A stretch of 40,722 bases of DNA from Candidatus Altimarinota bacterium (lineage in GTDB: Bacteria > Patescibacteriota > Gracilibacteria > UBA4473): NCBI GenBank assembly GCA_027028725.1, contig JALVIB010000013.1, positions 1-40,722 of the forward strand. Reading direction: 5' to 3'. The position numbers were made by a program, and so were the translations under genes. Every line of letters begins with the position of its first letter. The stretch's first letter is position 1. Of the stretch, positions 1,796-35,000 are shown in pieces. A model generated the notes under the pieces. The model made no database searches and was not told where the DNA came from. It worked only from the letters and a program-made list of their open reading frames with translations.

Positions 1796-3130
1796 ATGTC
1801 GGACAAAAAAGACACTATCAAAAAGAAAATTTGGTTCAAAGATGGTGCTGTTGAACTAAACCGAATTATTGAAGAATACAACGCCGGTGAGGACATTCTT
1901 TATGATCAAATGATGATTGGAGATGATGTCTGGTGTAGTCGTTGTTATGCGCAACTTTTGGAAAAACATGACTTAATAACACCAGAAGAATTGGCTCAAC
2001 TAGAGCAAGGTTTAGACGAGATTCTGGAACTTTGGGAAAAAGGAGAATTTCAATTACGAGTAGAAGACGAAGATTGTCATACAAAAATTGAGGAATACTT
2101 AATTGAAAGATTTGGGGACACTGGAAAGAAAATTCACACTGGACGATCACGAAATGACCAAGTACTAGTGATGATGCGGTATTTTTTGAAAAATAAGGCG
2201 ACAAAAATCCGCGAAAATATTCTAGATTTAGCGGAATATTTTTTGAAATTCGCGAAAGAATACGAGTTTGTGCCAATGCCGGGATATACTCACATGCAAA
2301 AAGCAATGCCGACAAGTGTCGGGACTTGGGCAAGTTCGTTTGTGGAGTCTTTGCTTGATGATGCACGACTTTTGACCGTGATTACGGACGAAATAATTGA
2401 CCAAAATCCGCTCGGATCAGGAGCTGGATATGGTTCGCCATTTGATTTTGATCGCGATTGGTTGAGTGAAAAACTTGGTTTCAGCCGAACACAAATTAAT
2501 CCGATTTACTGCCAAAATTCTCGCGGGAAATTTGAAGGACTAGTCTTGGAAGCGTGTTGTAACATTATGCTGACTTTAAACAAATTTGCTTCGGATATGC
2601 TTTTCTTTACGACACAAGAATTTCAGTTTTTCAAAATGGATGATTCGATTGCGACTGGTTCTTCCATTATGCCACAAAAGAAAAACCTTGATGTTGCGGA
2701 GTTAATTCGCGGGCGAACAGCAACAGTTTTTGCTTGTCGTCAGGAAATTGCGACTAATACGCTAAACAAAATTTTGGGATATCATCGTGACGGACAAGAG
2801 ATGAAACGACCGCTTTTCCTTGGTTTGCGATATACCGATATGTCGATTGATGCGGCCAAAGCAATTATCGCAAACATTGAACCGAACGAAGAAGTTATGA
2901 TTGAATCGATGATAGCTTCGCCGGGATTATTCGCCGCACACAAAGCGTTTGAATTGGTTAAACAAGGTATGACTTTCCGTGATGCTTATCGTCAAATTGG
3001 ATCAAATATTCAAGGTATTGAAATTTCTCCCGAAGAAATTCGCGAGATGTTGAAACAATCAACTCACCAAGGTGGGACTGGTAACCTTCAACTTGATAAA
3101 CTAGAAGAACAAATCAAAGCAATGCGGTAA
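1796..3130 (+). CDS. argH: argininosuccinate lyase (fumarate-lyase superfamily)
   Basis: Signature blocks HTGRSRNDQV, GYTHMQKAMP, GSSIMPQKKNLDVAELIRG. I prefer the ATG at 1796 (MSDKKD...) over the TTG at 1724, because the 24-aa extension is read through a repeat-filled spacer. Confidence 0.85.
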   Translation: MSDKKDTIKKKIWFKDGAVELNRIIEEYNAGEDILYDQMMIGDDVWCSRCYAQLLEKHDLITPEELAQLEQGLDEILELWEKGEFQLRVEDEDCHTKIEEYLIERFGDTGKKIHTGRSRNDQVLVMMRYFLKNKATKIRENILDLAEYFLKFAKEYEFVPMPGYTHMQKAMPTSVGTWASSFVESLLDDARLLTVITDEIIDQNPLGSGAGYGSPFDFDRDWLSEKLGFSRTQINPIYCQNSRGKFEGLVLEACCNIMLTLNKFASDMLFFTTQEFQFFKMDDSIATGSSIMPQKKNLDVAELIRGRTATVFACRQEIATNTLNKILGYHRDGQEMKRPLFLGLRYTDMSIDAAKAIIANIEPNEEVMIESMIASPGLFAAHKAFELVKQGMTFRDAYRQIGSNIQGIEISPEEIREMLKQSTHQGGTGNLQLDKLEEQIKAMR

Positions 3131-3138
3131 AATAAAAT

Positions 3139-3146
3139 CCCGCGAA
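3139..3146 (+). repeat. short motif core CCCGCGAA, 8 nt after the argH stop
   Basis: TAAAATAAAATCCCGCGAAATAT. Confidence 0.9.
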
Positions 3147-3168
3147 ATATTTTATAACCCCCTTAAAA

Positions 3169-4143
3169 ATGGCTGAACCATGGAACATGCTCGAACTTCT
3201 CCGCGAAAAAATCAAAGCAAAAGGTGGACCTGTTTGTTGTCATGCGCATTTTGATAAAGCGTATGTGGTTACGCCAGAAACTTTGCAAATGTGTAACGAT
3301 CACATGGAAGTAAAATGGGATTTATGGAAAGAGGTTAAAGAAAACTACACTCACAAAGATTTAGTAGAAAGAATTTCGCGGAGTGCGCAAAATTTTGTAA
3401 ACCAAGGTTGCGATATCGTGCGGACAAATATTGATGTTGATGCAACTGTTGGAATGAAATGTATTGAAGCCGCGCTAGAAGTTAAGGAAAAATTCGCGGG
3501 AAAAATTGATATTCAAATTGTTTCACAAGTTTTGGAAGGCGCTCTAACACCGGAAGCGCAAAAGATGATTGAAAAAGCCGCGAAATATGTTGATGTCTTG
3601 GGCGGACTCCCCTCTCGTGATCGACCACATGAAAACGAGCATTTAGATTTCTTGTTCGATCTCGCGAAAAGAATGAATAAAACGGTTGATGTTCACATTG
3701 ACCAAAATAATGATCCCGACGAACGCGATACGGAATTGTTGGTTAAAGCAGTTATCAGAAATGGCATGCAGGGACGAGTGAACGCGATCCATTCTTGTTC
3801 GCTAGCTGCTCAACCTGATGAGTATATTCGCGATGTTGCACAAATGCTTAAAGAAGCAGATATGAGCGTGGTTGTTTGTCCGCGAGCGATGATTGATAAT
3901 CAGCAACCGCGACATAAAACAGGACCAATTCATAACTCAATTGCACCAGTTCCACACTTGATTGAAGCCGGCGTAAATGTTGCACTAGGAGTGGACAATG
4001 TTTATGACTTTTTCTGTCCGTTTATTGATGGAAACTTGTTTACAGAATTAGTTTTCTTGTTGGAAACTACGCGATTTTACGATGTTGATAAACTTGTAGA
4101 TATCGCGACAACTAACGGACGAAAGGTTTTGGAGAATGTTTAA
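3169..4143 (+). CDS. metal-dependent amidohydrolase, cytosine-deaminase-like
   Basis: 324 aa. HxH motif (CCHAHFD), VHIDQ, HSCSL and GVDNVYD blocks are spaced as in the amidohydrolase TIM-barrel fold (CodA-like). Substrate not inferable. Confidence 0.55.
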   Translation: MAEPWNMLELLREKIKAKGGPVCCHAHFDKAYVVTPETLQMCNDHMEVKWDLWKEVKENYTHKDLVERISRSAQNFVNQGCDIVRTNIDVDATVGMKCIEAALEVKEKFAGKIDIQIVSQVLEGALTPEAQKMIEKAAKYVDVLGGLPSRDRPHENEHLDFLFDLAKRMNKTVDVHIDQNNDPDERDTELLVKAVIRNGMQGRVNAIHSCSLAAQPDEYIRDVAQMLKEADMSVVVCPRAMIDNQQPRHKTGPIHNSIAPVPHLIEAGVNVALGVDNVYDFFCPFIDGNLFTELVFLLETTRFYDVDKLVDIATTNGRKVLENV

Positions 4144-4146
4144 AAT

Positions 4147-4154
4147 CCCGCGAA
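4147..4154 (+). repeat. short motif core; the amidohydrolase stop codon is part of the motif flank
   Basis: TAAAATCCCGCGAAATTTT, with TAA at 4141-4143. Confidence 0.9.
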
Positions 4155-4170
4155 ATTTTCCACTTATTCC

Positions 4171-4298
4171 GTCATTGCGATCCCGCTCTGCGGGGGAAGC
4201 AATCTACTCCCTCGAACCAGTCATCTACTATAAATCTAGCTAAATTAATAAACAAAGAAGGAGATTGCCACGCTCCACTATGTTCCGCTCGCAATGAC
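4171..4298. mobile_element. MITE-like element, second copy (GTCATTGCGA ... TCGCAATGAC)
   Basis: 10-bp perfect TIR. Shares GAAGCAATCT and AGATTGCCACG with 1577-1692. Lies between the amidohydrolase stop and the terminator hairpin. Confidence 0.7.
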
Positions 4299-4302
4299 AA
4301 AT

Positions 4303-4337
4303 AAAAAAAGTCCAAACCTGCGGTTTGGACTTTTTTT
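4303..4337. terminator. bidirectional Rho-independent terminator between the convergent amidohydrolase and lipoprotein genes
   Basis: AAAAAAA-GTCCAAACC-TGC-GGTTTGGAC-TTTTTTT: 9-bp perfect stem, 3-nt loop, A-run and T-run on either side. Confidence 0.8.
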
Positions 4338-4343
4338 AAAAAT

Positions 4344-4351
4344 TTCGCGGG
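4344..4351 (-). repeat. short motif core, 4 nt after the lipoprotein stop (sense orientation)
   Basis: Minus-strand reading is TAAAAATCCCGCGAAATTTTT. Confidence 0.9.
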
Positions 4352-4355
4352 ATTT

Positions 4356-4907
4356 TTAGAATTCGTCAGAGTTAGCGAAAGCTTCCATAGATTTTAATCC
4401 TAATTCAAGAGTGGCAAGTGTTGCTTTTTTATCAACTTCAGTCCAGTCTCCAAATTCTTCATCTGGATTAAACTCTTTATCTTCTTCGTCAGGCAATCCT
4501 AATTCGTCAGACAATTCATCTGCTTTTTTATAACAAATAATTGCTCCTTCTTTTGTCTCTGCTTCTTCTAGACATGATTTATAAAAAGTCATTACTTGAA
4601 TTGATTTAGGCAAATTTTCTTTCATTTTATTTAATTCATCTTTCATCGCTCCCATAGCATTTCCATTCGCCAAAGCTTCTTTCATAGAATCCCCCACCTC
4701 ATCGCTATACTCATCTCCCATGGCTTCTTTCATTCCTTCCGCCATTTTGTCTGCCATTTCGTCATTGGTCATAGTTGTTACTTTGTCTAATTTTTCCGCG
4801 ACTTTATCGGCTAATTCATTACCGCGTTTTTCGGTTTCTGTTTGTCCACAAGCGGTCAAAGAAACAGCCAACGCCAACACAAAGGTGATTGTTAATAGTT
4901 TTTTCAT
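4356..4907 (-). CDS. acidic lipoprotein, unknown function
   Basis: Internal start MKKLLTITFVLALAVSLTAC gives a signal peptide with a lipobox (LTAC). The upstream 21 codons of the tracked ORF look spurious. The rest is E/D/K/M-rich. Confidence 0.6.
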   Translation of the reverse strand: MKKLLTITFVLALAVSLTACGQTETEKRGNELADKVAEKLDKVTTMTNDEMADKMAEGMKEAMGDEYSDEVGDSMKEALANGNAMGAMKDELNKMKENLPKSIQVMTFYKSCLEEAETKEGAIICYKKADELSDELGLPDEEDKEFNPDEEFGDWTEVDKKATLATLELGLKSMEAFANSDEF

Positions 4908-4975
4908 TTTATTAAAAGTTAGAAAATATAAAGTTTGGGCAATTCTAAAACTGCTTATCAGATAAGTCAAAAATT

Positions 4976-5015
4976 AAAAATCCCGCGCTGTGCCCCGCAA
5001 GGCGGTGGAAATTTT
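4976..5015 (+). repeat. composite element copy a (intergenic, abuts trmD stop)
   Basis: AAAAATCCCGCG-CTGTGCCCCGCAAGGCGGTGG-AAATTTT: short motif split by a 21-nt cassette. Confidence 0.9.
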
Positions 5016-5667
5016 ACTGGCAATTATCCTTTCGCCATTGTTCAATCTTGGCGTGATGTCCCGACAGGAGAACTTCAGGAACTTTTAACCCGCGAAAATT
5101 TTCTGGGCGCGTATAGTGTGGATACTCTATTTTTCCATCTAATTTCGCGGAAAAAGACTCTTCCTGATGACTTTCTTCTTTGCCCAGAACATCAGGCAAA
5201 AGTCGCGCTACCGCATCAATAAAAATTTGCGCGGGTAGTTCTCCGCCAGTCAAAACAAAGTTCCCAATAGAAATTTCCATATCAACTAATTCATCGCGAA
5301 CTCGCTGATCAATTCCTTCATAATGTCCGCAGAGCAAAATAACTCGGTCAAAATCCCGCGAAATTTTTTCCGCCATTTCTTGATTAAATATTTCTTTACT
5401 TGGCGTGAAAAAAATCACTGGTGCCTTGTCTTTTTCCAAATTTTTGACATGCTCAATACTATCAAACAATGGTTGACAAGTCATCAACATTCCCGCTCCG
5501 CCACCATAAGGAACATCGTCCACTTTTTTATGTTTGTTTTTAGAAAATTCGCGAATATCCCACAACCTTACTTCAAATTTTTTCTCCTCAATCGCTCGTC
5601 CAATAATAGAAGTCGATAAAAAACTTTCAAAAGCTTCGGGGAAAAGTGTTAAAACTTCAAATTTCAT
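5014..5667 (-). CDS. trmD: tRNA (guanine37-N1)-methyltransferase
   Basis: MKFEVLTLFPE..., DDVPYGGGAGMLM, LLCGHYEGIDQRV, ISIGNFVLTGGELPA, YTRPENFRGLKVPEVLLSGHH: full set of TrmD (SPOUT) blocks. Confidence 0.93.
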   Translation of the reverse strand: MKFEVLTLFPEAFESFLSTSIIGRAIEEKKFEVRLWDIREFSKNKHKKVDDVPYGGGAGMLMTCQPLFDSIEHVKNLEKDKAPVIFFTPSKEIFNQEMAEKISRDFDRVILLCGHYEGIDQRVRDELVDMEISIGNFVLTGGELPAQIFIDAVARLLPDVLGKEESHQEESFSAKLDGKIEYPHYTRPENFRGLKVPEVLLSGHHAKIEQWRKDNCQ

Positions 5668-5824
5668 CAGCTGATTTATAGCATTTTTTCGAGTTTTGCA
5701 AAATTTCCTGCCTAACTTGTTGTTTTAGTTTTACCTGCCGGCAGGCAGGCGCGGGAATTTTAGAATAAACTTAAAAGTAAAAAAGTCGAAGAGACAAAAA
5801 ACTCCAAATTTTTCACTTCGGAAA

Positions 5825-5848
5825 GCGCGGTCACGTGACCGCGCCTAC
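5825..5848 (-). repeat. REP-like hairpin (GTAG + 20-nt perfect palindrome)
   Basis: GCGCGGTCACGTGACCGCGC followed by CTAC (the complement reads GTAG-GCGCGGTCACGTGACCGCGC). Confidence 0.8.
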
Positions 5849-5866
5849 AAAGAAGTAATTACTTTT

Positions 5867-5892
5867 AGGGCTGGCACAAGACCAGCCCCTAC
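5867..5892 (-). repeat. REP-like hairpin
   Basis: AGGGCTGG-CACAAGA-CCAGCCCCTAC. The complement starts with GTAGGGGCTGG. Confidence 0.75.
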
Positions 5893-6001
5893 ATTTTCTT
5901 CTGACCCCCAAATTTCTATCCTTTTTCAGCGAGAATTCCCGCGAAATTTTGATTTTTTAGAAAAAAAATTATAAAGTTGGAGTGTAAATAAACCCCCCTT
6001 T

Positions 6002-7810
6002 ATGAAAAAAAGAATAATCGCTTTCGTTTTAATTTTAACTTGTGGACTTGCACTTGTCCCACAGGCAAATGCTTTCCGCAGTAGATACGCTGATTTTTGG
6101 GCACAACTTTTTGGACACCATTTCAGCAACAAAAATCCCGCGAAAAAAACAATTTCGCCTTATGCTCGACGGACTACTCGCCGAACTATTAAAAGAAAGC
6201 CATTTTCGCGACTATCAAAGAGACGTTTATTATTTTCCCCCTTCGCCAAGGCTACGGCGGACAGGTCACGGGATTTTCGAAACCGTTATAATCTAAATCG
6301 GCAAAATAACACAACTGGATTGATCGCGACAATTTCGCCAACTACTCCACATCAAAGTATTTACAAAGTTACCGACGATCCGGTTAGTGTTTTTAAAATT
6401 GGTGTTCGCAATAATTCCCGCACCAGTTCGACTAAATTTCCCGCGAATTTTTTGTTGGACAAAGCGGAATTTCAACTTTTTTCTAGAAACGGAATTTTTA
6501 CCGATCCCAGCGATTTTGATTTAGTGGTGAATGGCGAATCTTTTCAGTTTGATAAAAATGGAAAAGCGACAATTAGATTCAACAATGCCAGACTGGCGGA
6601 AGGCGAAAGTTTAGAACTAGATGTTGCGATAAAAGCTGATGATCCGGACAATATGTTACATCAAAACGGAAGTGCAAAATTGCGCTTACTAAATATTACG
6701 GCAAAAAAAGAATTTTCGCGGGATTTTGTGCCAGTTCTTATTCGCGGAAGCCGTATTTCGAAACTTATTTCCTATTTGCCAACACCAGTTGTCAGTAGTA
6801 GCGGAAATTCGACAATTGTTTCAACTGCCGGTTCGTCAATTTACGGCGACTTAATTTTAGCTGGTGAAGAAAAATTTGTTTTAGCGGTTCATATGAATGC
6901 GAGTTACGACGATTTGGCGATTCGAAAAATGACGGTTCACAATGTTTATGGCAACCTGATTGATTCGCAAGTTCAGGAAATTCAAGCCGTAAATCTTTTG
7001 ACCGGAGAACTTTTGGATACTGCGATGTTTACTAACGGTGAAGCACGATTTCAGTTTTCGCCACGCGTAATTATCCCACGAAATGGTTCGGGAAAAATTG
7101 GGTTCAAGGTAAAAACCCGCGAAAATCCGCGAAATCATGGTGATCGGCGTTTGAAACTAACTTTGTCAGCCAACGATGTTTTGGTAGAAAGTTTATCTAA
7201 TGGTCGCGAATTACCGAATTCTCACAAAAATTTCAATATTGATTCTTACGATTTTGTGGTTGTGCGAAGTTCACTAGAAGTTTCTCCGCAAAATCAACCT
7301 AACAATTTTTCAATTGGAACAGGAAGCCCAGAAGGAGTTTATAATTTCGCAATAAATTCGCGGGATTCTGCAGAGCTAGCACGAATTAGTTTTGATGTTT
7401 ATCCAAACGGCTTACAATTTGCTGGAGGAAGCATTTCCCCAGACGATTTTGAGTTAGTCGAAGTTTATGGAAATCACGAAGAAAATCTAAACACAAATAT
7501 TTCAGTTAGCGGAAATAAAGTCACTTTTGATTTCGTAAATCCTCTTTCTTTCTTTCAAAATTCCGCGAAAAATTTCCGTTTAAAAGTTGCCTTGGATGAA
7601 TTAGGTGCGAGCAATGATAATGATGGAGTTTCTGTGCGAATTTCTAGCGATGGAAGTTATATTAACAATACTTTAAATTCAGTGCGTACCAGTGGAGCCA
7701 ACTTCATTTGGTCAGACGAATCCGCCAGTCCACACTCAACAAATAGTGATGACTGGTTTAGCGGATACCGAATGAATTTTCCATCTAATTCAGTTTATAT
7801 TAAGCGATAA
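6002..7810 (+). CDS. secreted protein, unknown function
   Basis: 602 aa. Signal peptide MKKRIIAFVLILTCGLALVPQANA. A basic, low-complexity N-terminal stretch partly encoded by repeats, then a beta-rich region with no motif I recognise. Confidence 0.6.
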   Translation: MKKRIIAFVLILTCGLALVPQANAFRSRYADFWAQLFGHHFSNKNPAKKTISPYARRTTRRTIKRKPFSRLSKRRLLFSPFAKATADRSRDFRNRYNLNRQNNTTGLIATISPTTPHQSIYKVTDDPVSVFKIGVRNNSRTSSTKFPANFLLDKAEFQLFSRNGIFTDPSDFDLVVNGESFQFDKNGKATIRFNNARLAEGESLELDVAIKADDPDNMLHQNGSAKLRLLNITAKKEFSRDFVPVLIRGSRISKLISYLPTPVVSSSGNSTIVSTAGSSIYGDLILAGEEKFVLAVHMNASYDDLAIRKMTVHNVYGNLIDSQVQEIQAVNLLTGELLDTAMFTNGEARFQFSPRVIIPRNGSGKIGFKVKTRENPRNHGDRRLKLTLSANDVLVESLSNGRELPNSHKNFNIDSYDFVVVRSSLEVSPQNQPNNFSIGTGSPEGVYNFAINSRDSAELARISFDVYPNGLQFAGGSISPDDFELVEVYGNHEENLNTNISVSGNKVTFDFVNPLSFFQNSAKNFRLKVALDELGASNDNDGVSVRISSDGSYINNTLNSVRTSGANFIWSDESASPHSTNSDDWFSGYRMNFPSNSVYIKR

Positions 7811-7811
7811 T

Positions 7812-7819
7812 TTCGCGGG
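7812..7819 (-). repeat. short motif core, 1 nt after the 602-aa gene stop
   Basis: TAATTTCGCGGGATTTTGG. Confidence 0.9.
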
Positions 7820-7860
7820 ATTTTGGAAAGTCGCGCCTACAATTTTTCACACTTCTGAAA

Positions 7861-7884
7861 GCGCGGTCACGTGACCGCGCCTAA
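7861..7884 (-). repeat. REP-like hairpin, same palindrome as 5825-5844 with a variant head
   Basis: GCGCGGTCACGTGACCGCGC followed by CTAA instead of CTAC. Confidence 0.75.
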
Positions 7885-7905
7885 AAGAAAATCGCAACTT
7901 GGAAA

Positions 7906-7929
7906 GCGCGACGGCGCCGTCGCGCCTAC
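7906..7929 (-). repeat. REP-like hairpin
   Basis: GCGCGACGGCGCCGTCGCGC + CTAC. Identical to the copy at 9511-9534. Confidence 0.8.
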
Positions 7930-7951
7930 AAAAAAGGAATTATTTTAAATT

Positions 7952-7977
7952 AGGGACGGTTTTAAACCGTCCCCTAC
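7952..7977 (-). repeat. REP-like hairpin
   Basis: AGGGACGG-TTTTAAA-CCGTCCCCTAC. Confidence 0.75.
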
Positions 7978-8170
7978 ATTCCTCAGACCTCTGAATTTCT
8001 CCCCTTCTTCCGTGAAATTCCCGCGAAATTTTTACTCCGCATCAGTGTACTAGTACATTAGTTCAGCCAAATCACTTTCTTATCTTATAAACTTATTGTC
8101 TTGTAAACTTGTGAACTCGTAAACCAACTCTTTATCTTTTCGACTTTTTAGCTTTTGAGCTGTCCTAAAT

Positions 8171-8198
8171 ATTAACTTTTAACTATTAACTATTAATT
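8171..8198 (+). repeat. AACTATTAAC tandem module
   Basis: ATTAACTTTTAACTATTAACTATTAATTT followed by CCCCAAAATCCCGCGAAATTT. Just 3' of the mraY stop. Confidence 0.8.
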
Positions 8199-8208
8199 TC
8201 CCCAAAAT

Positions 8209-8216
8209 CCCGCGAA
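8209..8216 (+). repeat. short motif core, 3 nt after the mraY stop
   Basis: Minus-strand reading is TAAAATTTCGCGGGATTTTGGGG. Confidence 0.9.
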
Positions 8217-8219
8217 ATT

Positions 8220-9275: not shown

Positions 9276-9377
9276 CTGTAAATAATAATCTCGCGGGAAT
9301 TTTAGGGAAACTCCTTCGTCTTGTAAACAAAAAAGAATTCAGAGACTTTTCCTAATTTTTTCGCGGGATTTTGGAAA

Positions 9378-9401
9378 GTATGAATTCAAATTCACGCCTA
9401 C
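9378..9401 (-). repeat. REP-like hairpin (imperfect stem)
   Basis: GTATGAATTCAAATTCACGC + CTAC, in the same GGAAAG...CCTACAA context as the other copies. Confidence 0.55.
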
Positions 9402-9510
9402 AATTTTTTCATATTTCCGAAAGCACGAATTCTGTCCCCCTCATTGAGGGGGAATAAATACGAAGAATGAGTATTTCAGGGGGAGCTAAAAAATCGCGGG
9501 AATTTGGTAA

Positions 9511-9534
9511 GCGCGACGGCGCCGTCGCGCCTAC
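9511..9534 (-). repeat. REP-like hairpin
   Basis: GCGCGACGGCGCCGTCGCGC + CTAC. Confidence 0.8.
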
Positions 9535-9552
9535 AAAAAAAGAATAATTTTT

Positions 9553-9578
9553 AGGGCTGGTATAAGACCTGCCCCTAC
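9553..9578 (-). repeat. REP-like hairpin
   Basis: AGGGCTGG-TATAAGA-CCTGCCCCTAC (one stem mismatch). Confidence 0.7.
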
Positions 9579-9587
9579 AAAGTAAAT

Positions 9588-9609: not shown

Positions 9610-9611
9610 AA

Positions 9612-9661: not shown

Positions 9662-9663
9662 AT

Positions 9664-26400: not shown

Positions 26401-29400
26401 TTCGCGGGAATTATCAAAGTTTAAATCTCCTGTCATTACTTCGTCAATAACCCCCTGATTTGTGCGATAAATCGGCTTTCCTAAATCTTTGGTCAGACCA
26501 AGTTCGGATTTTTCGTTTTCGCTAGCCACTGATAAAGTCGGATCACCGAGCAAGATACAATTTTCGGAACAGGAAAATTTTGTCGCTTCTCCAACTGAAT
26601 TTTTCGCAGCAAAAAGTAGTCCTCCTTTCCAAGAAGTTGTCCAACCTAATTTTTCATCAGTTGTCGGAAAATTTGGCGCTTTCAATATTTTATCGGGTGT
26701 TTCAAATTCATTTTTCGCGATAACCGCAATTCCTTTCGGGGAAGTTGTGGTCAGCCCGTTTAAAGATTTTTCTAATTTAATAGACGGATCTAGACTCTGG
26801 AAAAATAACGAATTTCCCGCGAAATTTTTGGCTTGGAATATTTCTGAAACTTTTTTAGAAACCTCGAGTCCTGCTTCTTTTTTTGAAAACAATTTTTTCG
26901 GTGTTTGTAGTTCCTCCAAATTAAATTGAGGATCAGTCATTTTCAAAATAATTTCCCCCAATAATTTTCCTTCTAAATAAACTTCCCAATGATACAAAGA
27001 ATTATCTTTAATTCGTAATTCCAATTTGGAATTTTCGACAAAAATTCCCCCTTGCGGAGCAATTTTAAACAAAGGTTGTTCTTGATAAAAAATTTCGCGG
27101 GATTTTAGGTAAAACTCCTTAATATCTAATTCTTCAACAGGAATAAAATAAATTCCGTCTTCCTCTATTTTTTTTCTTCCTGCCCAAAAATCTACCTTCG
27201 AATCAAAATTGAATTTAGCAGAGACTTTTTTATTTAAAACGACCTCCCATTTACTACCAGAAACAACTTCCGGCTGAAAATCCCGCGCTGTGCCCCGCAA
27301 GGCGGTGGAAATTTTTCCGTCGGCAAAAATATTTCCTAATTTTTTCGCTTGTTTTTTATCAGCTATTTGTGTCGCTACCGCTTGCGTTTCACCATCAAAA
27401 AGAAAGCGATTTCCAATATTTGGCTTAGTTAAATCTCCTCCAGCAAACCCAAGTAATAATGTTAGCAAAGATTTCGGTGATAAATGCTTGAAATCACTTG
27501 TCGTCAAAACTTTTACTGCATCAATCTCGATTGTTCCCGGCAATAAATCGTCATTTTGCGCAACTATGTAAGCTTTTCCGCCATGCTCAACCGGATAAAT
27601 TTTATTAATACCTAAACCATTGGTAATTGTTAAATTTTCAGATTCTAAGGAAATAACTGGTGAAGAATTTGCGGGATTTTGGTTCTGATTCTGGACTAAG
27701 GCATCAACTTTTGCCGGATTATCCAAAATATTTAGATCCTTCAAATCTTGTGCTTTGTCCGCGAAATTTTCCGGTGGATTAACTGCAAACTGCACTTCTC
27801 CATCAAAGTCCGCGAGATTTCCATATTTATCGAGCACGCGAACTTGTAAATCTAGTGGGTTTTCATCGTCAACATTGAGAGTTTTCTTAGAACTTAAAAG
27901 TTGAATTTGATAAGGATCGCCCGCGAAAATTTGCAGGGAAAAATTGTTTTTCACAAAACCTGGTGCAGAAATTTGCACATTCAAATTGCCTGCTTTTTCG
28001 CCCGCGAAAATTTCTAGCTCCGCTTCCCCATTTTCAAAAACTATTTCTGGTAAAGCTGTCGCTTTGGCTTTATCGCTTACCAAAACCTGCGCAACAAAAT
28101 CATTTTTCAAAATTTTGCCGTCTGCCGTCTTGGCTAAAACCTTAATTTTTAACGGTTCTGTATCCCCCGCTCGCAAGTCTTTTTCCGGAATAATTGTTTC
28201 AAAAACTGGATTTTTAGCGAGTAAAATTTCCACCGCCTTGCGGGGCACAGCGCGGGATTTTTTAAGTAGAAGTGGTTTCTCATCTTCCTTTGTCGGAATT
28301 TCTGCAACCAAAGATATGTGTTCCGTAGGAATTTCGCGCTGTGCCCCGCTCTGCGGTGGGGATTTTTTCGTTGGTAAAATTTTGGTGATTTTTTTCAAAA
28401 ATTCTTCTTCCGGTTCATGTGCCTGAATGAATACTTCTCCTGCTTTTTCACCTTTTTCCAAGGTTAAATTTTCTCCAATCTGCCATTTTATTTGCTCTGC
28501 TAATTCTGGTATTTCGTTGCCATATTTATCAGTAATTCCCGTGAAAAAATTTTGCTTAACGCCGTTTATCACAAGTTTGTCTGGCGCGGAAAAAATCTCG
28601 ATTTTAGCTGGTTCAGCTGGCAAAATATCAAAATAAATTTTCGCGGGAGGAAGTAGTTTCTGTTCATCTTGTACAATAATTTCTGCTTCTCCGGCTTTAA
28701 TTCCTGGTAAGAAAACAATTTTAGCTATCCCATCTTTTATTTTGGCGCGAGCACCTGAAGTAAATTCTTCGGAAAAGAAACGCCCTTTTTCTGATGTAAA
28801 TTCTAAAATTTCGCCATCAAAACTGTGATCAATATTTCCTTCGTTATCCAAAATTTTCGCGGAAATTTCCGTTCCCGTTCCGTCTCCGGCGGTGATTTTT
28901 TCTTTATCGCTGGAAGCACTTATTCTCTTAGTTGAGATTTTTATTTGAACTTCGTTTGATTCAACTGAATTCCCGCGAAATTTAAACTTCACGACTCCCC
29001 CATTTGGTCCGCGTTTTGGCAAAAGGAAAAATTTCGCTTGTCCCGCTTTAACCAAAACTTTTTTCGCGGGCGTTATGGTAAAGAAATTTTCTAAATCTGA
29101 ACTATTACTAATCAATTCTACTTCTGTCGAATAATCGTTTTTCAAAATTTTGCCGTCAGCATCTTTGAGCGTAACTTTTATTTCCTGCGGAAAAGTCTCG
29201 TTGTTAGAAATTTTAATTGCACTTGGTTCAGCTGCAATTTCTGAAATAACAATTTCGTCTGCAGTTTTCACTGGACTTAAATCAAAAGAAGACAAATTTT
29301 TCGCGGGATTTTTATCTGTATTCTCTGAACTATCTTCTTTTTCTAAATCAACATTTGGAATTAGTTTTGTTATTTTACTCAAAACATTCGGCAATTCTTG

Positions 29401-31941
29401 TAGCCAAGGAACTAAACATTTTGAAGGCCAAGAAAAAATATTTCCCGTACAAGAATTTTCACTGGCTGATTTTTCAAAAAGCTTCTCGAATTCCTGTTGT
29501 AGTTTCAAATTTTCGCGGGAATTTATTTTTTTGTATTCTGTTGCAACTTCATCATTGGCTGAAGTTATATCGGCCTGATTTTTTAAGTCAACAAAACTGG
29601 TACTTGGTTTTTCATCACCACGCTCAAAAGCAATTTTTAGTCCGTTATTATTTTCAAAATCCGCTAATTCCCCGCGAATTTCTATTAACTCATAACCATC
29701 AAAATCTGATTGTTTTAAGGCATTTCGCGCTTTACCGGGCGCCGACATCGCCGCCGTCAACATTTCAATATTTTTTGTTTCCAAATCCTTTCCCAGCCAC
29801 TTAATCGCTTCAATTAGTTCTTTTTGTTTCCCCGAATTCATCCAGATAGAATCCGCGAAATATGATTCTTGGATTTTTCCAGCATTTCCCGCTGTTGAAT
29901 TAATTTCGTCTATTGTAGACAAAAGTTGTTGTTCTAAGTCCGCCTTAGTTAAAATTTCAAAATTTTCATCAGTTTCCTCACGCTTGTTAATTAAATCAAA
30001 AGCACTCGGAAAATAAATTCGGTAAAAATTATAATCGTAATCATAAAAAGAAATTCCGTGATGCGGATCAATTGGTAAAGCATTTGTTATTTTATTTTTC
30101 AGTTGGGCCTTAATTGTGTCTATTGTTGGTTCGTTGTGAACCATTAGAGAGGAAATTTCGATTTTCTTTTTGTTCGCAGCAGCAGTTCTAACTGCCGTAT
30201 CTTGTAATTCTAAAATAATAGGAGCGCAAGCACTAGCTCCATCATAGCGAGAATCAGAAATTTCGCGGGATCCTGTCATGCTAAAAATTGGAGAATTTAC
30301 TGATTCATACCAATGATTATAAGGTAGAGACTGAGTTGGATCATAAACTGCCTTATCCCAATAATAGTGAACTTTTACTTCTTCATTACTTCTCATATGA
30401 GATATATATAACGGTAAACGACATTTATGATAATCAATATCACTACCACTAATTTTTCCACAACAACGATCGTCTGGATAAATATCATCACTAGTAACAA
30501 CTTTGCTAAATTTATGCGGATTAAAAACCCGCGAAATTTCTACTTTTTGAGCAATTGGATTAGAGTCTGAACGAAGTGTTCCCCGATAAAGAGAACAATT
30601 CTCTGCAGGATACTTTATATCAGCTGTTTCATACTCTCCTGTTCTCCAATTCCATTTTTTAAAGTATTTGTTTTCTACTGGCTTACTAAAAGGTATCCCT
30701 AACCATTCAGCAGGAAAATGTTTTAAACAAGTACTTTCATCATTATTAACACATCCAACATCTTCTATTATAAGATTTACTTTGGCCGCAATATTATTTT
30801 CATCAACCTTATTAATTAAAATATTCTCTACTTCATCAGTAGCTTCTTTCAAAATATCTGATGCCCACTGGTCTTTTTTGGCAATTAGTGAAATGGTCGT
30901 ATCAATATCCGGCGCTTCCCAGCGACCAGCGACTTCTACTTGCTCATTAATTTGCGATAATAAATTTTTATTCGCGGTCAGATACCGCATTGACATTGTT
31001 TCAATTGGATTTTTGGTAAAAATATCAGGAATTTGCGATAAATCCATTGACTGATCTTGTCCTTGCATTGAGTTCGGCAAAAGTTCGTTTGGCACGCCTT
31101 GTCCCATTTCTTTATCTAGCAATTCCTGCAACCAATGCTTATTAAAGCGGTGATAAACAAAATCACCCAAATGATTAATCCAGTTCTCATAAAATTGTTT
31201 TTGTTTCTCACTTATCCCCCGTCGTTGACGGAAAAAATCCGCGAAAAAAACTTTTTTGGAATAATTTATCTTTTTCTGGTGAACTTGGTGATTACGCGTA
31301 AAATATTTTTTTAATTCTGCAATTTGCAATTCTAAATCATCAGCATCAGACCGAATTAATCCGTGCCAAATTTCCGGCTCATTATCTCCCCCAACCCATT
31401 TAAAGCGTTTTCTATCAAAATCCCATTGATAAGAAGTATCTTCAAAATCAACATACGGAAAAATCGCGGGATTTAGACCGCCGTTTTTGTCAACAATTGG
31501 CAGAGGAACCTCTCCGATTAAAATTGTTCCAATTAATTGTGACTTATGATCATTTTCGTATCCGGAAAAATAAAGTTGCGCCAAACCTTCCTGAATTTCT
31601 TTGGGAGAAGCGTCTTCCGGTACATTGATAACAATTGCCCGCGAATTTAGTTCATTCTGAACATCCTGTGCATATCGTTCGATGTCGCCTTTTAAATCTG
31701 TGTCTAGAAGTTCTTCCTGAACCAGAATTGCCACAATTTTTTCGCGGGAAATTGGCGGAAGTTCTTTTTCCGGCTTTTCTGAAATATCTTTCTGTTTATC
31801 CTTTTTAATGAAGTTTATATTCCCAAAATCAAAATCAAAAAGTGCTTTGGCTTCCGCGATTGGTGCCCCAATAGAGAAAAAAACTGACAAAAGCGCCACA
31901 AAACTAGCAAATTTTTGCCATAACTTTTCTTTAAAAAACAT
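20407..31941 (-). CDS. giant (3,844 aa) membrane-anchored surface protein with Ig-like (Big_1-like) and FG-GAP/VCBS-like repeats, Pro/Gly-rich hydrophobic segments and a coiled coil
   Basis: Single uninterrupted ORF. N-terminal signal/anchor (FASFVALLSVFFSIGAPIAEAKA). Invasin-like Ig repeats at about 27760-29250 (VTLKDADGKILKND..., AKILDNEGNIDHSFDG..., RVLDKYGNLADFDG...). FG-GAP-like DxDxDG-type segments (GDLNFDNSREIF, NSDAFDDLVLLDDSNNLYF, SDLDEDGTPELLYS). Contains 30 short motifs and 5 composite repeats, all in frame. Confidence 0.8.
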   Translation of the reverse strand: MFFKEKLWQKFASFVALLSVFFSIGAPIAEAKALFDFDFGNINFIKKDKQKDISEKPEKELPPISREKIVAILVQEELLDTDLKGDIERYAQDVQNELNSRAIVINVPEDASPKEIQEGLAQLYFSGYENDHKSQLIGTILIGEVPLPIVDKNGGLNPAIFPYVDFEDTSYQWDFDRKRFKWVGGDNEPEIWHGLIRSDADDLELQIAELKKYFTRNHQVHQKKINYSKKVFFADFFRQRRGISEKQKQFYENWINHLGDFVYHRFNKHWLQELLDKEMGQGVPNELLPNSMQGQDQSMDLSQIPDIFTKNPIETMSMRYLTANKNLLSQINEQVEVAGRWEAPDIDTTISLIAKKDQWASDILKEATDEVENILINKVDENNIAAKVNLIIEDVGCVNNDESTCLKHFPAEWLGIPFSKPVENKYFKKWNWRTGEYETADIKYPAENCSLYRGTLRSDSNPIAQKVEISRVFNPHKFSKVVTSDDIYPDDRCCGKISGSDIDYHKCRLPLYISHMRSNEEVKVHYYWDKAVYDPTQSLPYNHWYESVNSPIFSMTGSREISDSRYDGASACAPIILELQDTAVRTAAANKKKIEISSLMVHNEPTIDTIKAQLKNKITNALPIDPHHGISFYDYDYNFYRIYFPSAFDLINKREETDENFEILTKADLEQQLLSTIDEINSTAGNAGKIQESYFADSIWMNSGKQKELIEAIKWLGKDLETKNIEMLTAAMSAPGKARNALKQSDFDGYELIEIRGELADFENNNGLKIAFERGDEKPSTSFVDLKNQADITSANDEVATEYKKINSRENLKLQQEFEKLFEKSASENSCTGNIFSWPSKCLVPWLQELPNVLSKITKLIPNVDLEKEDSSENTDKNPAKNLSSFDLSPVKTADEIVISEIAAEPSAIKISNNETFPQEIKVTLKDADGKILKNDYSTEVELISNSSDLENFFTITPAKKVLVKAGQAKFFLLPKRGPNGGVVKFKFRGNSVESNEVQIKISTKRISASSDKEKITAGDGTGTEISAKILDNEGNIDHSFDGEILEFTSEKGRFFSEEFTSGARAKIKDGIAKIVFLPGIKAGEAEIIVQDEQKLLPPAKIYFDILPAEPAKIEIFSAPDKLVINGVKQNFFTGITDKYGNEIPELAEQIKWQIGENLTLEKGEKAGEVFIQAHEPEEEFLKKITKILPTKKSPPQSGAQREIPTEHISLVAEIPTKEDEKPLLLKKSRAVPRKAVEILLAKNPVFETIIPEKDLRAGDTEPLKIKVLAKTADGKILKNDFVAQVLVSDKAKATALPEIVFENGEAELEIFAGEKAGNLNVQISAPGFVKNNFSLQIFAGDPYQIQLLSSKKTLNVDDENPLDLQVRVLDKYGNLADFDGEVQFAVNPPENFADKAQDLKDLNILDNPAKVDALVQNQNQNPANSSPVISLESENLTITNGLGINKIYPVEHGGKAYIVAQNDDLLPGTIEIDAVKVLTTSDFKHLSPKSLLTLLLGFAGGDLTKPNIGNRFLFDGETQAVATQIADKKQAKKLGNIFADGKISTALRGTARDFQPEVVSGSKWEVVLNKKVSAKFNFDSKVDFWAGRKKIEEDGIYFIPVEELDIKEFYLKSREIFYQEQPLFKIAPQGGIFVENSKLELRIKDNSLYHWEVYLEGKLLGEIILKMTDPQFNLEELQTPKKLFSKKEAGLEVSKKVSEIFQAKNFAGNSLFFQSLDPSIKLEKSLNGLTTTSPKGIAVIAKNEFETPDKILKAPNFPTTDEKLGWTTSWKGGLLFAAKNSVGEATKFSCSENCILLGDPTLSVASENEKSELGLTKDLGKPIYRTNQGVIDEVMTGDLNFDNSREIFVRSGDTLSALYADPHNQDNFRDIGKILRFADGAKQTVAYNKNNGDLEYIIQINDEGKLIFHHNQDGKFSREKINLGLLNPIEKIAVAKLNSDAFDDLVLLDDSNNLYFVYGREGGFYSAQLLDSAGATFQEISEYYTTADGQNRSLKYINPDKFKNLQNFFAGFSNILDYAWTPNLRKIGETDFLRVTENKAFNIKFEMTQENPRNLNNLKVQKDSEFTAKVTIYSPNIDLENFKLIVPKFAGFQVDTNSFDFTNCEGNPEISEKSESMMISGCNIPKQQLVRISWKLKTVEVPLISFKVVDFVGKDGIDDILIPWVIDGKKKFIEYLSYGSGKLYPPNPAKKTPDAPASPIVKTHLKKIVDAFPEGTTFPSDFDAESTASDMLECLTSSDDGLPPFYHTLDVEELMQEMSVKQNFAGLQIPSIAFLAPGPQSIYIPPFAFPGPQFPGFPILWVGPSTPFVGVGPNSTSLFRLYIMPTTTLRVGIGICGGPVIDSSMSPTGSPFPPQCFVIVPPLSSSSSSGNGNNNDTSNNCIFENPANSDENASRNAFLQNSFADNGNVNYGTFAPLVGGYSQNLNIAAPDIITEWAKAQMDEFSNYKFPQFDIILPKFPKLKFGDKSMKPLDRLAASPYFEVKRKNLQINYPDFSREKLDKLKTDFSFWKKSSADAKASLSQSLVDLELTDFQDFDRAIADFQTNFNNNFSAEINLPDLSKLPPDLQLSIKNEVQNIKTRSAELKNLVNEKLIGLKNTPQELKNSAKNKIQEQIDEIEKIETVLDENLRALDSYMTEIKKLKELPKKIKRAVEEMEKINEVVEVYWSTWINKNKQAVKEWKKFAKKVKGIVDTWNDIPNLFKDFTVSCVPGGGGGASSVNRGTMISWLLKILLSAVKLPVIPMPQMQNTMIDLSDVKIGVSVTVPEISFSPVPVSLPKLPTTISAKINPAKLIDQSLNASLKGFTASIGSVGKMTDLTFDSLEGITNEADLLIAGKNIENKLKSYNASLDSSLSTLSGGGNFHRLAGHSAGNSANYNADFIAKFPTIKVPNIVVLPPLPKVVPEIKVPTINLPQLPTLLPPPNFPNILKPVTAIVSAFKPFMKTILCWLSMGIIPIPEWKVASRVVQLTNRTSLLPMDFVPSAQLPLMPKMVAPTINIKPKVPLVPAFESVNASLTALAQTMNAITNTLSTMGKGGIPNPESIIPRNLPTSSIKNEKVETVAINLFDEVEDNSGEIDTRPVLQKLKKLADSATDIPLDFQQKKIKSRLEKHLALYKNMLASADDVPNFLPDNVDTSKYDPKNIEPQPIAKLYYYDSQKDKAEVITDFPVNGKIHTLNVSDLDEDGTPELLYSIDGQLFMKRLKDKFPTESQTSKEVIHQNFAEFSKYFAPAIELNSETNAIGSSLEFLPPKSREISYFEWIISERPDRIFEKTPKSRAVPRKAVEKYSKEWKRIGFLIRPKGHKYEIRPGVAQIKKIVGHPILYGNKMKKIARFSASECRDPEVVKPFFPEETILVGIGKESQFRVKTKKREGQQAEERDIILRAGEETAVDFAEICLTRGEINYLDLGKIEKFVPKVGDHFFSNMRFELGNNDEVELNLYNDTKVHIYGGESYELHSFNSRENFIDNFQKLNLGNHYGQFKAFKKDGESFVLSKNLLHDPQPGDDTEPPQIIISQGSKIEAFITAPIEIDASGSYDNQKISRVWWKRDGHIFLDSDKDKKSPTQLLKIKLPAKNFPQNFEVELNIADESGNIATQIIPIEVKVPKLKLIDVSRREQKIRGKIKEGISGLRVGVLRERKGRKDILEKTAISEKGGNFVLEELGTSGNILLKDKNTKEVLAAILPTGRPMILNSKKAHTRITTKPFAIKITDDKMEEMATITLKTSGENDVKINSNTSEIPAKSVKNSSEIQVVDADDQDDFVWQSFSDGVVLLDNANKRTVGILNNSGKFEATDYLKNLKILPKKATDEKEPLIFTINIENEKGIDKKIAEFFIPVKDIVVQ
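22078..22114 (-). repeat. composite element copy c (in frame in the giant gene)
   Basis: Reverse complement is AAAATCCCGCG-CAGTGCCCCGCAAGGCGGTGG-AAAA. Read as KSRAVPRKAVEK. Confidence 0.9.
23319..23356 (+). repeat. composite element copy d (in frame in the giant gene)
   Basis: AATTTCCCGCG-CTGTGCCCCGCTAAGCGGTGG-AAATTT. Read antisense as NFHRLAGHSAGNS. Confidence 0.9.
27277..27316 (+). repeat. composite element copy e (in frame in the giant gene)
   Basis: AAAATCCCGCG-CTGTGCCCCGCAAGGCGGTGG-AAATTTTT. Read antisense as ISTALRGTARDF. Confidence 0.9.
28223..28263 (-). repeat. composite element copy f (in frame in the giant gene)
   Basis: Reverse complement is AAAAAATCCCGCG-CTGTGCCCCGCAAGGCGGTGG-AAATTTT. 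Read as KKSRAVPRKAVEI. Confidence 0.9.
28330..28368 (+). repeat. composite element copy g: the same cassette inside an opposite-orientation host motif (in frame in the giant gene)
   Basis: AATTTCGCG-CTGTGCCCCGCTCTGCGGTGG-GGATTTTTT. Read antisense as SPPQSGAQREI. Confidence 0.85.
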
Positions 31942-32007
31942 AATATCAGGGGGTTTGTTTTTCTTTGCCTGAATTATGTATCTTTTTTTCTAAAAACTCA
32001 ATAAATT

Positions 32008-32015
32008 TTCGCGGG
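32008..32015 (-). repeat. short motif core, 12 nt after the 1,796-aa gene stop
   Basis: Minus-strand reading is TAAAATCCCTAAAATCCCGCGAAAATTT. Confidence 0.9.
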
Positions 32016-32027
32016 ATTTTAGGGATT

Positions 32028-35000
32028 TTATTTTGGAGGACTCCAACTCATTAAAACTTTTTCAATAACTTCAGTATTTTCAAAGTATTTTTCGCGTGTT
32101 TCTGGACTATCTAATAATTTTTTTGCCTTTTCCCAAACACCACTTTCTTCCAACTTCTTTTTTCGCTCTTTATATTGAATTCCATATTCCAAAACACCCA
32201 TAAAATCTAAAACTTCTCCAAATCCATCATCACCACCAGCAACTTGAAAAACCTGTTTCATAAAACTATTAATTTGTTCTTTGCTTCTTTGAGCCGAAGC
32301 TGAATAACCTGTATCTTCCTTTCTCCAATCTTCTGCATTAAAGACTATTGAACCACGCTCCTGTCCAAGGTTAATATTACCTTGAAGTGTTTGAGTTACA
32401 GTTAAAGCCGCATTTAATCTGTCTCCAACCTCAATTAATGCTCTTTTCCTTTCTTTTTGCCAACCAGGTAATTCACCCCATTTTTCATCTCCTTCTTTAA
32501 TATAATCCCGCATCATTTGCATATATGTCGGAAATCCTGATAAATAACGACGCCAAAGGTCGTTTGACAATTTGTTTTCACCACCAGAAGATTGTGACAT
32601 ATTGTTTATAAGATGGACCTGCTTCCAGTCCGCGAAAAAACTTTCTGCATCATCATGATCTCCCTCTTTATCTGAAAAACGATCCATTCGCGAAACACGA
32701 TCACGAGCCGGTGGGGAAGCATGTACAATATGATAAAAGAATTTTTTTGTTTGTTCTTTAATATTAGAATCATTAAGAATATCAAAAGACCCACCTCCAT
32801 TACCAAGAAAGTCTCCCCAAGCCTTATAGTCTTCATATGTCCACCCTCTTTTTTCTGCTCCTGGAGTGTCTTCTGGAACAATTCTGCCATTTAATTTATA
32901 AGATTCCTTATCTGTTAAAAAATCAACATGTGGAAATCTTGCTAAAAATTTATCATTAATTCGCATAAAGGCATCTCGTGAAATTAAACTACGATTTGTT
33001 TTAGGATTTATAGTAGCAACCCCCATTACTAAAAAATACCATCTTTGATCAGGTTGTCCGTTCATTTTTCCTTTCTCAAAAGACTCATGAATAAAACATT
33101 CATATTTCGCGGGATCTACATCTGTACTATCTCCTCTTGCCCATTTTTTTAACATTGTTGATAAAATCCTACTCCTAGCTACAGGAGAGTCCTCATATCT
33201 AGCAAAATCAGCTTTAAAACTATCGATTGCTGAATCAAGTTTACCTTTAAGATTAGTATCCCAATCTCGGAATGTTTCTTTTGACCAAATAAATTCACAA
33301 GCATTACGAACTTTGTCCAAGATTTCTAAACGAGAAAGATTTAAGTCTTCAGGAATACGGAAAGTAACTGCATTTCCGGACAACCTCATCAAAGTTCTCC
33401 ATAGTCCAGGATCATCCCATTGCAAAACCCCCTTATCTAACATCAATCTAATCAAAGCTTTAGCTTCATCTTGGTCATTGGTACGATATAAGGCATCTTG
33501 CAAATCCCATCCCGGCACTTCTCCATACTGAGTTTCAAATTCTTTAACCCGGTTTTCTTCTGCTTCTTCTGCCTTTTGCTTAAAATCTTTTCCCCAAGCT
33601 GATTTCTCACCAAAAAAACTCATTCCAATATTTGCCACAGCTCGCTCTGAATCACGCTGCCATCTTCTTTCATGCACTTCAATTGCTTGTTTTACAATGG
33701 CATATAAATCATACAATGAGAATCTTTGATAATTCCTCTGAGGACCACTGTTTTTGGCATTATCATCATATTCTGTCACCCATTTTTTAATTTTTTGCGC
33801 ACTATCATTGGCGCTCTTTGAATAATCTCGCAAAGAATTAAAATCTGCCATTTCAGCAATAGCTTCTGCTCTGTCCTGCGGAGATGCATCATAACGATTA
33901 ATCCAGTCTTTTAGGAACCCTGACTTAAAAAATTTATCTGATTTTTCTTTAAATTCATTCAGTCTTGCTCTATGTTGACTCAAAATATCTTCTAAATACT
34001 CCTTATCCAAACCATATTTATTAAAGAAGTCTTGATCATCCATTTTGTTTAAATCTCGACGGATTCGACTTTCAACATCATTAATTGCTTCCTGATATTC
34101 CGCGAAATCTTTTTTAAACCCTTTAACTACCTCATTATAATTTTTGGTAAATTCTTCTTTATCAGGCGTATCATCATCAAAAAATTGCAACTCGGTCAGA
34201 AGCTCCAAAGCTCTATTGGAATCTTCCAAATATTTATTTAAAGACTCACTTTCTTTAGCAAATTTCCCGTCTCGAAAATTCAAAGCTGTTTCAAGTTTGA
34301 TGAAATTATCAGCGAAAATTTCCCAGAAAGTCTCTTTTCCCGTAAATTTATAATCAATTTTTTTCGCGTGTTTTTGCAAATTATCAAAAGTCTTCTGGAA
34401 ACTATCCAACATTTTCATTGGAACTTCCATCAATAAATCGGTAAATTCAGCCGGATTAACTCCTTCCGGCAAAACTTCGTTAATGACTGTACCTAAATCT
34501 AAAAATTTATTTCTTAATTTCTCCTTTTGTTCCGGCCATTTCTCAAAAAGTTTATCTAACTCATTTTTAGCTTCTGCTTGACGCAAACTCGCCGCAATCG
34601 GATCATCTTTCATCTTAGAAATCCCGCGAAATTTTTCAGCAATTTGGGCAATATCATCCCGTAATCCATTAGTTATTTCTGCAATTTCATTATTAACACT
34701 CTGTGTTTGTAAAGCTATTTCATTCAAAAACTCGCGCCCCGGAGCCCAAATTAATTTAGGTTTACCATTTTTATCTTTTCCCCAATATCGCCCGCCTCTT
34801 TGATAAGCTTGTTTGCGGTACTCAAAGGACTCTTCTAATTTATCTGCTTCATCTAAATAATGTTGTTTTTTCGCGGGATTTGTTTCTTCTTCAGCTTTAC
34901 GACGCAACCGTTCTACATAAGCTTCATTAACTTGGTGTGCATCTTCTATTTCTTGTGATGTAATTAATTTATTTTGCTCATAAGCCACATGATCTTCGTG

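Follow-up and report, generated by a model that had tools for sequence, protein, structure and literature searches.

A genus-specific, uptake-sequence-like word concentrated at stop codons in a Patescibacteriota genome

Positions 1 to 40,722 of contig JALVIB010000013.1 (assembly GCA_027028725.1), from a Candidatus Altimarinota bacterium, carry a short motif with a GC-rich core that recurs immediately after stop codons. This whole stretch of 40,722 nucleotides was analysed and is called the window below. An initial annotation had placed the motif 0–12 nt from the stops of 13 genes, and had proposed that it could mark the 3' ends of transcripts or simply take the first neutral position after an open reading frame (ORF). 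We find that the motif is not an element of gene ends: it is a word whose copies saturate the genome, lie mostly within ORFs and are confined to one genus. Its concentration at stop codons reflects, with a probability that we put at about 0.6, a docking or placement bias of a DNA-uptake-like word, and not a 3'-end function.

The word and its distribution

The genome studied (G000) is a 1.04 Mb assembly of 94 contigs, 99.6% complete, and its closest named relatives are metagenome-assembled genomes of Candidatus Peribacteria. The genus consists of three genomes, each a species of its own: G000, its sister species G002 and a third species, G001. Genes were taken as the ORFs of a simple longest-ORF caller, which gives a set of 22 ORFs of at least 70 aa in the window.

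A logo built on the 8-mer core TCCCGCGA extends to an 18-bp unit, AAAATCCCGCGAAATTTT. This is a pseudo-palindrome, whose reverse complement (AAAATTTCGCGGGATTTT) differs from it at only four positions, and the arms AAAAT...ATTTT are common to both orientations. The word itself holds no stop codon in any frame, and stops can form only at its edges.

Allowing at most one mismatch, the 11-mer ATCCCGCGAAA occurs 102 times in the 40.7-kb window (1..40722, both strands) against 1.5 copies expected from shuffles. Most of these copies, which form the background to the 13 stop-codon sites, lie in ORFs, about 30 of them inside a single gene of 3,844 aa. Across the 1.04 Mb of G000 there are 2,472 copies of the core, 1,247 on the plus strand and 1,225 on the minus strand. 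ORFs hold 1,585 of them (64%), in all six frames and at a density of 1.81/kb, and the 886 copies between ORFs reach 5.33/kb, which is about three times the coding density. As 85% of the coding copies align without gaps to motif-free orthologs, they arose by substitution.

The word is also restricted in its taxonomic range. In a search of 31 genomes, a 12-mer of the word was found 1,391, 1,012 and 281 times in the three genomes of the genus, against 0–1 copies in the other 28, which are family and class relatives. The third species, G001, has its own dialect of the word, TTCCGCGAA. The dialect pair AAATTTCGCGGAAATTT / TTCCGCGAA is more palindromic and occurs about three times per kb (loci L021-L040).

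Two features of base composition were seen alongside the word. The tetramer CGCG occurs 8,101 times in G000, where about 1,384 would be expected, and most of these lie in copies of the word, exact or decayed. GGCC is found only 302 times, compared with 2,436 for CCGG and 2,751 for GCGC, a scarcity that suggests avoidance of a HaeIII-type restriction site.

Concentration and phase at stop codons

The pattern seen in the window extends to the whole genome: the 8-mer core lies 0–12 nt past the stop in 276 of 899 G000 genes (31%). When the distance from stop codon to motif was compared with random placement, as the initial annotation had suggested, 23.2% of copies were found 0–4 nt from a stop against 8.1% after random placement within the same spacers, so that the proximity to stops stood up. 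The motif is depleted 5–15 nt upstream of start codons, where the ribosome-binding sequence is expected.

The position of the word relative to the stop is precise. Offsets were profiled for the 18-mer in spacers of at least 30 nt, with the average intergenic rate per position as baseline; an offset of -2 denotes a start at the second base of TAA, -1 a start at the third base, and from 0 upward the word is clear of the stop codon. At TAA stops the 18-mer was found 33 times as often as the intergenic rate predicts at offset -2 and 14 times as often at -1, while the non-overlapping offsets (0 to +11) after TAA stay at about 1x, with no enrichment. This phase lock is equally strong in spacers of <60, 60–149 and >=150 nt. 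It also depends on the type of stop codon, the word being found at 35% of TAA stops compared with 11% of TAG and TGA stops together (odds ratio (OR) 4.2, p=1.6e-9). Both orientations are used, with 151 docked copies sense and 115 antisense to the gene. In convergent spacers of 10–22 nt the sequence is T-AAAATCCCGCGAAATTTT-A in 19 of 23 cases, with both arms docked at once. Usage of TAA itself is 74% in this genus and 51% in the relatives.

The same pile-up is present in the sister species G002, where 32% of genes have it in the same phases, and G001 has a weaker version in a dialect of its own (22%); the motif-free relatives do not show it. Comparison of stop-adjacent copies between G000 and G002 gave 27 sites with the word in both, 19 and 36 with the word in only one, and 99 with neither, so that sharing exceeds chance (OR 3.9, p=1.4e-4). 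The apparent losses are mostly copies with one mismatch, or copies which have been flipped or shifted, and the orientation of the word can flip at one stop site between these species. Exact conservation between the two is 59% for stop-adjacent copies and 51% for coding copies, so that strong extra selection on the stop-adjacent copies is not indicated. A closer strain was also sought, so that sites could be compared before and after, and the only contig recovered was 100% identical.

A pre-existing arm in motif-free relatives

Relatives that lack the word already have part of it at their stop codons. In 1.02 Mb of motif-free sequence, A occupies the first four bases after TAA in 52, 42, 43 and 38% of cases, and the frequency of AAAAT at TAA stops is 11.6 times its intergenic rate at offset -2 and 5.3 times at offset -1. 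There is no AAAAT peak at TAG or TGA stops in the same sequence. The arm in the relatives therefore matches the G000 word in phase, in rank order and in dependence on the stop codon. These counts, from a larger sample, replaced a flank likelihood profile on a first small outgroup sample, which was too noisy.

This agreement suggests how the word could come to sit where it does. TAA, together with the A-rich context that follows stops in this family, already spells the first arm of the word (T-AAAAT), and at a gene end only the stop codon combines a fixed sequence for those letters with freedom from constraint further downstream. Because the arm is spelled out, its letters fixed and the downstream bases free, new copies would arise and persist in phase with the stop, and they would do so in either orientation, since both share the AAAAT arm. 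Where a spacer was lacking, the word was gained as about 15 nt of added DNA. We infer that the pre-made arm causes the phase and does not merely correlate with it, and that the word is multiplied by biased uptake or transmission.

Several points weigh against this explanation. The pre-made arm accounts for a pile-up of 12x, and the one observed is 33x; TAG stops show abutment of about 6x, which the sequences of the relatives do not predict. Something more is acting at stops: constraint may be relaxed, bases may be locked or there may be a function. Of the information in the word, only about 3 bits reside in the arm, and for that reason control by the arm over where the GC core arises is not obvious. 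The added DNA in tight junctions, described below, is a departure from what a simple point-mutation drive predicts. ComEC and the other competence genes are found just as often in relatives that have no copy of the word, and a role as a transcriptional 3'-end signal is argued against only indirectly. Finally, the longest-ORF calls mean that start codons, and hence the lengths of tandem spacers, may be off.

Alternative explanations

Active targeted insertion survives best among the alternatives, and we consider it unlikely. Here the word, or a part of it about 15 nt long, would be placed at gene ends by a sequence-specific mechanism with a preference for TAA or an A-tract, either microhomology-mediated copying from other copies or an enzyme which would also explain a 20-nt cassette found in the CGCG of the word. 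On this view the lock on stop codons reflects the choice of target site. Stated more fully, gene-end copies would not be built up letter by letter; the word would be a self-propagating 'punctuation' unit of about 15 nt, with a dedicated mechanism that targets TAA or an A-tract and pries apart overlapping operon genes, and with a possible link to DNA uptake or to the inserter of the 20-nt cassette; such a unit seems to us equally doubtful.

Insertion has to be considered because DNA has been added at gene junctions. Among 93 junctions that are syntenic with motif-free relatives, the basis of all our outgroup junction comparisons, 56 overlap or abut in the relatives (ATGA type), and eight of these 56 carry the word in G000. 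At six of the eight the G000 spacer, of 12–18 nt, is the word alone and the ends of the two flanking proteins can be matched to those of the relatives residue by residue, so that they are unchanged and the net added DNA comes to 13–39 nt. Measured from the last to the first aligned residue, the median gain in length is +24 nt at junctions that carry the word, compared with +6.5 nt at the others (p=0.039). The 19 of 23 short convergent spacers made up of the word also fit insertion, as does the depletion of convergent spacers of <12 nt (13% against 37% in relatives).

A further point in favour of insertion is the 20–21-nt hairpin cassette CTGYGCCCCGCAAGGCGGTG, of which there are about 111 copies genome-wide, in genes and spacers alike, nearly all within a copy of the word and at one fixed place in its central CGCG. 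As so many copies hold the same cassette at the same position, something recognises the word precisely. However, the ends of the added segments vary (12, 14, 15, 17 and 18 nt) and no target duplications are seen, the gap-free alignment of 85% of coding copies indicates substitution, and the sister species has copies at those stops that are degenerate, flipped or shifted, which looks like mutational turnover. No candidate enzyme has been identified. A spacer-length comparison of G000 and G002, set up to separate insertion from substitution, gave a slope of 83 nt per motif, which merely shows that larger spacers hold more copies.

A function at gene ends, as first proposed for the motif (factor-dependent terminator, roadblock or processing site), is somewhat less likely again, and was not supported here. 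A dimeric DNA-binding protein or an RNA-binding factor would end, block or process transcripts at the word in place of Rho and hairpins, with the copies in ORFs masked by translation or tolerated. The presence of the word at 31% of genes, its sharp phase and the persistence of the pattern in three species would be expected of such a signal, and it is found at 42% of convergent compared with 31% of tandem ends (p=0.004). Stop-adjacent copies are possibly better conserved than other intergenic copies, with exact conservation of 8/10 against 16/38 (p=0.07). Rho is absent: no match to TIGR00767 over the cut-off was found in G000 or in eight family and class relatives, whereas 12 of 14 control genomes gave matches, eight of them over the cut-off. 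The remark of the initial annotation that classical terminators are few was roughly right, as a hairpin with a T-run follows only about 14% of stops that have a spacer of at least 60 nt.

The word does not have the properties of a terminator. Single stop-adjacent copies are essentially unfolded: for three of the four examined, the minimum free energy lies between 0 and -0.3 kcal/mol and does not improve on shuffled sequence. The fourth (7808-7842) reaches -9 kcal/mol through pairing with flanking sequence, and this is not significant (z -1.55). Closely spaced inverted pairs, which would fold at -19.8 kcal/mol, number only five genome-wide, and no RNA family from Rfam matches within the window. 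Hairpins with a T-run are found after 15% of the stops that adjoin the motif, compared with 20% of the remaining stops (p=0.20), so that the word is not depleted where hairpins occur. In 24 of the 26 cases where both are present, the hairpin is on the downstream side, which places the word in the 3' UTR (untranslated region). Hairpin terminators are as frequent in the motif-free relatives (15% and 9%) as in word-bearing species (14–15%). As the relatives also lack Rho, and hairpins are no commoner in them, the word does not make up for any deficit that is peculiar to its bearers.

Other properties are hard to reconcile with any gene-end signal. Most copies (64%) are in ORFs, and the two orientations would yield two different RNAs. 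The word occupies 53% of tandem spacers of 12–29 nt, and it fills operon junctions that are translationally coupled in relatives, where there is no space for a new promoter. The threefold dependence on the type of stop codon would not be expected of a functional signal.

Specific forms of termination were also rejected. An intrinsic terminator does not fit single copies which are unfolded and, at 4300-4358, unpaired on the 5' side of a real hairpin; a Rho-dependent terminator does not fit a genome with no Rho above the cut-off. A motif replacing hairpin terminators would be depleted where they occur and would come with a lower hairpin frequency than in relatives, neither of which was seen, and inverted-pair hairpin terminators as in Neisseria are limited to the five pairs.

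The suggestion that the motif takes the first neutral position after an ORF came closer, and it is incomplete. As a full explanation, in which the word takes the first free bases after an ORF and a deletion bias in a streamlined genome pushes it toward the stop, it is improbable. The threefold higher intergenic density, the depletion of the motif upstream of starts and the many short spacers that consist of the word only are all as neutrality would have them. However, positions 0 to +11 after TAA are at baseline, which largely refutes neutrality, and it is overlap with the stop that is favoured. In addition, long spacers (>=150 nt) show the lock undiminished, genus spacers are longer than those of relatives (tandem median 77 against 35 nt), and the dependence on TAA is left unexplained. 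The neutral-position reading is probably best refined into a stop-codon docking bias of a word like an uptake signal sequence (USS), in a pattern which is genome-wide and genus-wide.

That T-preceded copies in 3' coding ends instead create premature TAA codons, so that adjacency arises by truncation, can be set aside as very improbable: T followed by AAAA does yield TAA in one frame and the word is stop-free except at its edges, but C-terminal differences from motif-free orthologs are equal with (n=41) and without (n=146) the motif (p=0.78; median 0, within 2 aa in 61% and 64%), and discordant G000/G002 pairs keep their stop at the same codon with or without the word.

Stop-codon sites in the window

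All 13 sites reported in the window were located, and the count of seven sense and six antisense copies was reproduced. The core CCCGCGA/TCGCGGG begins 2–12 nt past the stop in 12 of the 22 window genes, and the thirteenth site, at trmD, is a composite form. Pfam upheld the gene names that had been assigned, with matches for Lyase_1 (argH-like), amidohydrolase, TrmD, an MraY-type GT4 glycosyltransferase, L19, MutL, TPR and an NTP-transferase.

Seven copies are sense to their gene. The first (3137..3147, plus strand) is a copy of ATCCCGCGAAA, 6 nt past the argH-like stop (3128-3130), and the second (4145..4155, plus strand) is merged with the TAA of the amidohydrolase gene (4141-4143) as TAAAATCCCGCGAAATTTT, its RNA being unfolded. 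At the minus-strand gene of 204 aa the word (4343..4353, minus strand) merges with the TAA (4356-4358) and separates the stop from a strong hairpin terminator (4302-4338, -21 kcal/mol), being itself unpaired and 5' of the hairpin. The mutL copy (12462..12472, plus strand) is merged with the TAA at 12458-12460, and that of the minus-strand TPR gene (16568..16578, minus strand) with the TAA at 16579-16581. The minus-strand gene of 3,844 aa has a copy merged with its TAA (20407-20409) at 20395..20405 on the minus strand. The last copy, at 32007..32017 on the minus strand, lies 12 nt past the TAA (32028-32030) of a minus-strand gene of 1,819 aa, and has a half copy, AAAATCCC, ahead of it.

Antisense copies are found at five further genes. 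The word at 7811..7821 (minus strand) is merged with the TAA of a 602-aa gene (7808-7810) as TAATTTCGCGGGATTTT. The minus-strand mraY-type gene has a copy at 8207..8217 (plus strand), which is merged with its TAA (8220-8222) and then followed by a heptamer array, and at rplS, also on the minus strand, the copy merged with the TAA (9664-9666) at 9652..9662 (plus strand) has both a heptamer array and a GTAG hairpin after it. A copy at 18108..18118 (plus strand) lies past the TGA of a 559-aa gene on the minus strand (18122-18124). At the galU-like gene (minus strand) the word, 17194..17204 on the plus strand, lies 5 nt past a TAG (17211-17213). The composite adjoins the trmD stop (5014-5016) at 4976..5015 on the minus strand, where a 20–21-nt hairpin cassette, CTGTGCCCCGCAAGGCGGTG, splits the word in its CGCG.

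The galU-like site has a further feature. Starting right past the TAG there is a promoter-like TTGAAA-17-TATAAT (17210-17182, minus strand), the spacer of which is the word; at 11 of 12 positions it is the best sigma-70-like match in the first 20 kb. Because of this match and its spacer, the start of the TPR gene may be an ATG near 17152 in place of the TTG at 17193.

Cassettes, heptamer arrays and spacers

Cassette copies in the window include those at 4988-5007, 23330-23349, 27288-27307, 28339-28358, 37360-37379 and 38569-38588 on the plus strand. A second kind of repeat, tandem heptamer arrays of (TTAAWAG) x 3–6, occurs 86 times genome-wide and never in an ORF. The arrays lie a median of 18 nt past a stop, often directly after a stop-adjacent word, and on other contigs are also found after a tRNA-like 3' end; in the window they are at 8179-8195, 9624-9640, 10521-10537, 16168-16184 and 37666-37682, on the minus strand.

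Spacers in the genus are about twice as long as those in 1 Mb of motif-free relatives, the median being 102 nt in convergent spacers (48 nt in the relatives) and 177 nt in divergent ones (98 nt), in addition to the tandem medians given above. The extra DNA is largely made up of repeats, namely the word, the cassette, heptamer arrays and GTAG hairpins.

Implications

The lock on stop codons shows the route by which such a word can colonise a genome, through silent rewriting within genes and docking on a trinucleotide that already spells its arm, and the word even adds DNA between genes that overlap in relatives. In a family without Rho and with few hairpins (9–15% of stops), the word is probably not the missing terminator, tempting as that reading is. 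For annotation, the word is of practical use, as it marks the true stop codon in a quarter to a third of the genes of this genus.

Comparison with known systems

Repetitive extragenic palindromic sequences and bacterial interspersed mosaic elements (REP/BIME) of Enterobacteria are imperfect folding palindromes, strictly extragenic and mobilised by RAYT (REP-associated tyrosine) transposases. They resemble the word in being short repeats that lie preferentially just 3' of genes, in either orientation. In contrast to these elements, a single copy of the G000 word is unfolded and 64% of copies are in genes, and we rejected an extragenic palindrome of this type on those grounds.

A further parallel is HIP1 (GCGATCGC), the highly iterated perfect 8-bp palindrome of cyanobacteria, which has a CG-rich centre, occurs in coding and non-coding DNA, is written by substitution and is unresolved in function. 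The G000 word is likewise hyper-abundant and nearly palindromic with a CG-rich centre, in coding and non-coding DNA, but it is 18 bp long, asymmetric in four positions and flanked by A and T tracts. We know of no report of a phase lock to stop codons for HIP1.

The uptake sequences of naturally competent bacteria were compared using the DNA uptake sequences (DUS) of Neisseriaceae and the USS of Pasteurellaceae found in terminators (Kingsford et al., 2007; PMC1852404). DUS and USS concentrate at gene ends, about half being in predicted terminators, mostly as hairpin-forming inverted repeats (PMC1852404; bioRxiv 10.1101/2025.10.24.684340). Inverted-pair hairpins at gene ends are typical of these sequences without strictly defining them, and the G000 word forms only five such pairs; its gene-end copies are instead single, unfolded, overlapping with the stop and upstream of hairpins. 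It is also two to three times denser, and its host is a bacterium of the candidate phyla radiation (CPR).

The likenesses to DUS and USS are extensive. Thousands of copies lie on both strands equally, far above expectation; they are found within genes in all six frames, written by substitution, and are enriched between genes, here too just downstream of ORFs. The word is restricted to one lineage (3 of 31 genomes) and has species dialects. As to competence machinery, G000 encodes ComEC, DprA and three T2SSE-type (pilus-type) ATPases, ComEA (HHH_3) stays below the cut-off, and ComEC is found just as often in relatives that have no word. In Neisseria, preferential uptake runs through a specific receptor, ComP. 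Natural competence and transformation have been shown in Saccharibacteria, another CPR group (PMC10633639), and our literature search found no paper linking Peribacteria, or Patescibacteria/CPR, with uptake sequences. If the word is an uptake or self-recognition signal, it would be the first such case from the CPR in the literature searched. Together, these likenesses suggest that the word most likely behaves like the DNA uptake sequence of Neisseria or Haemophilus.

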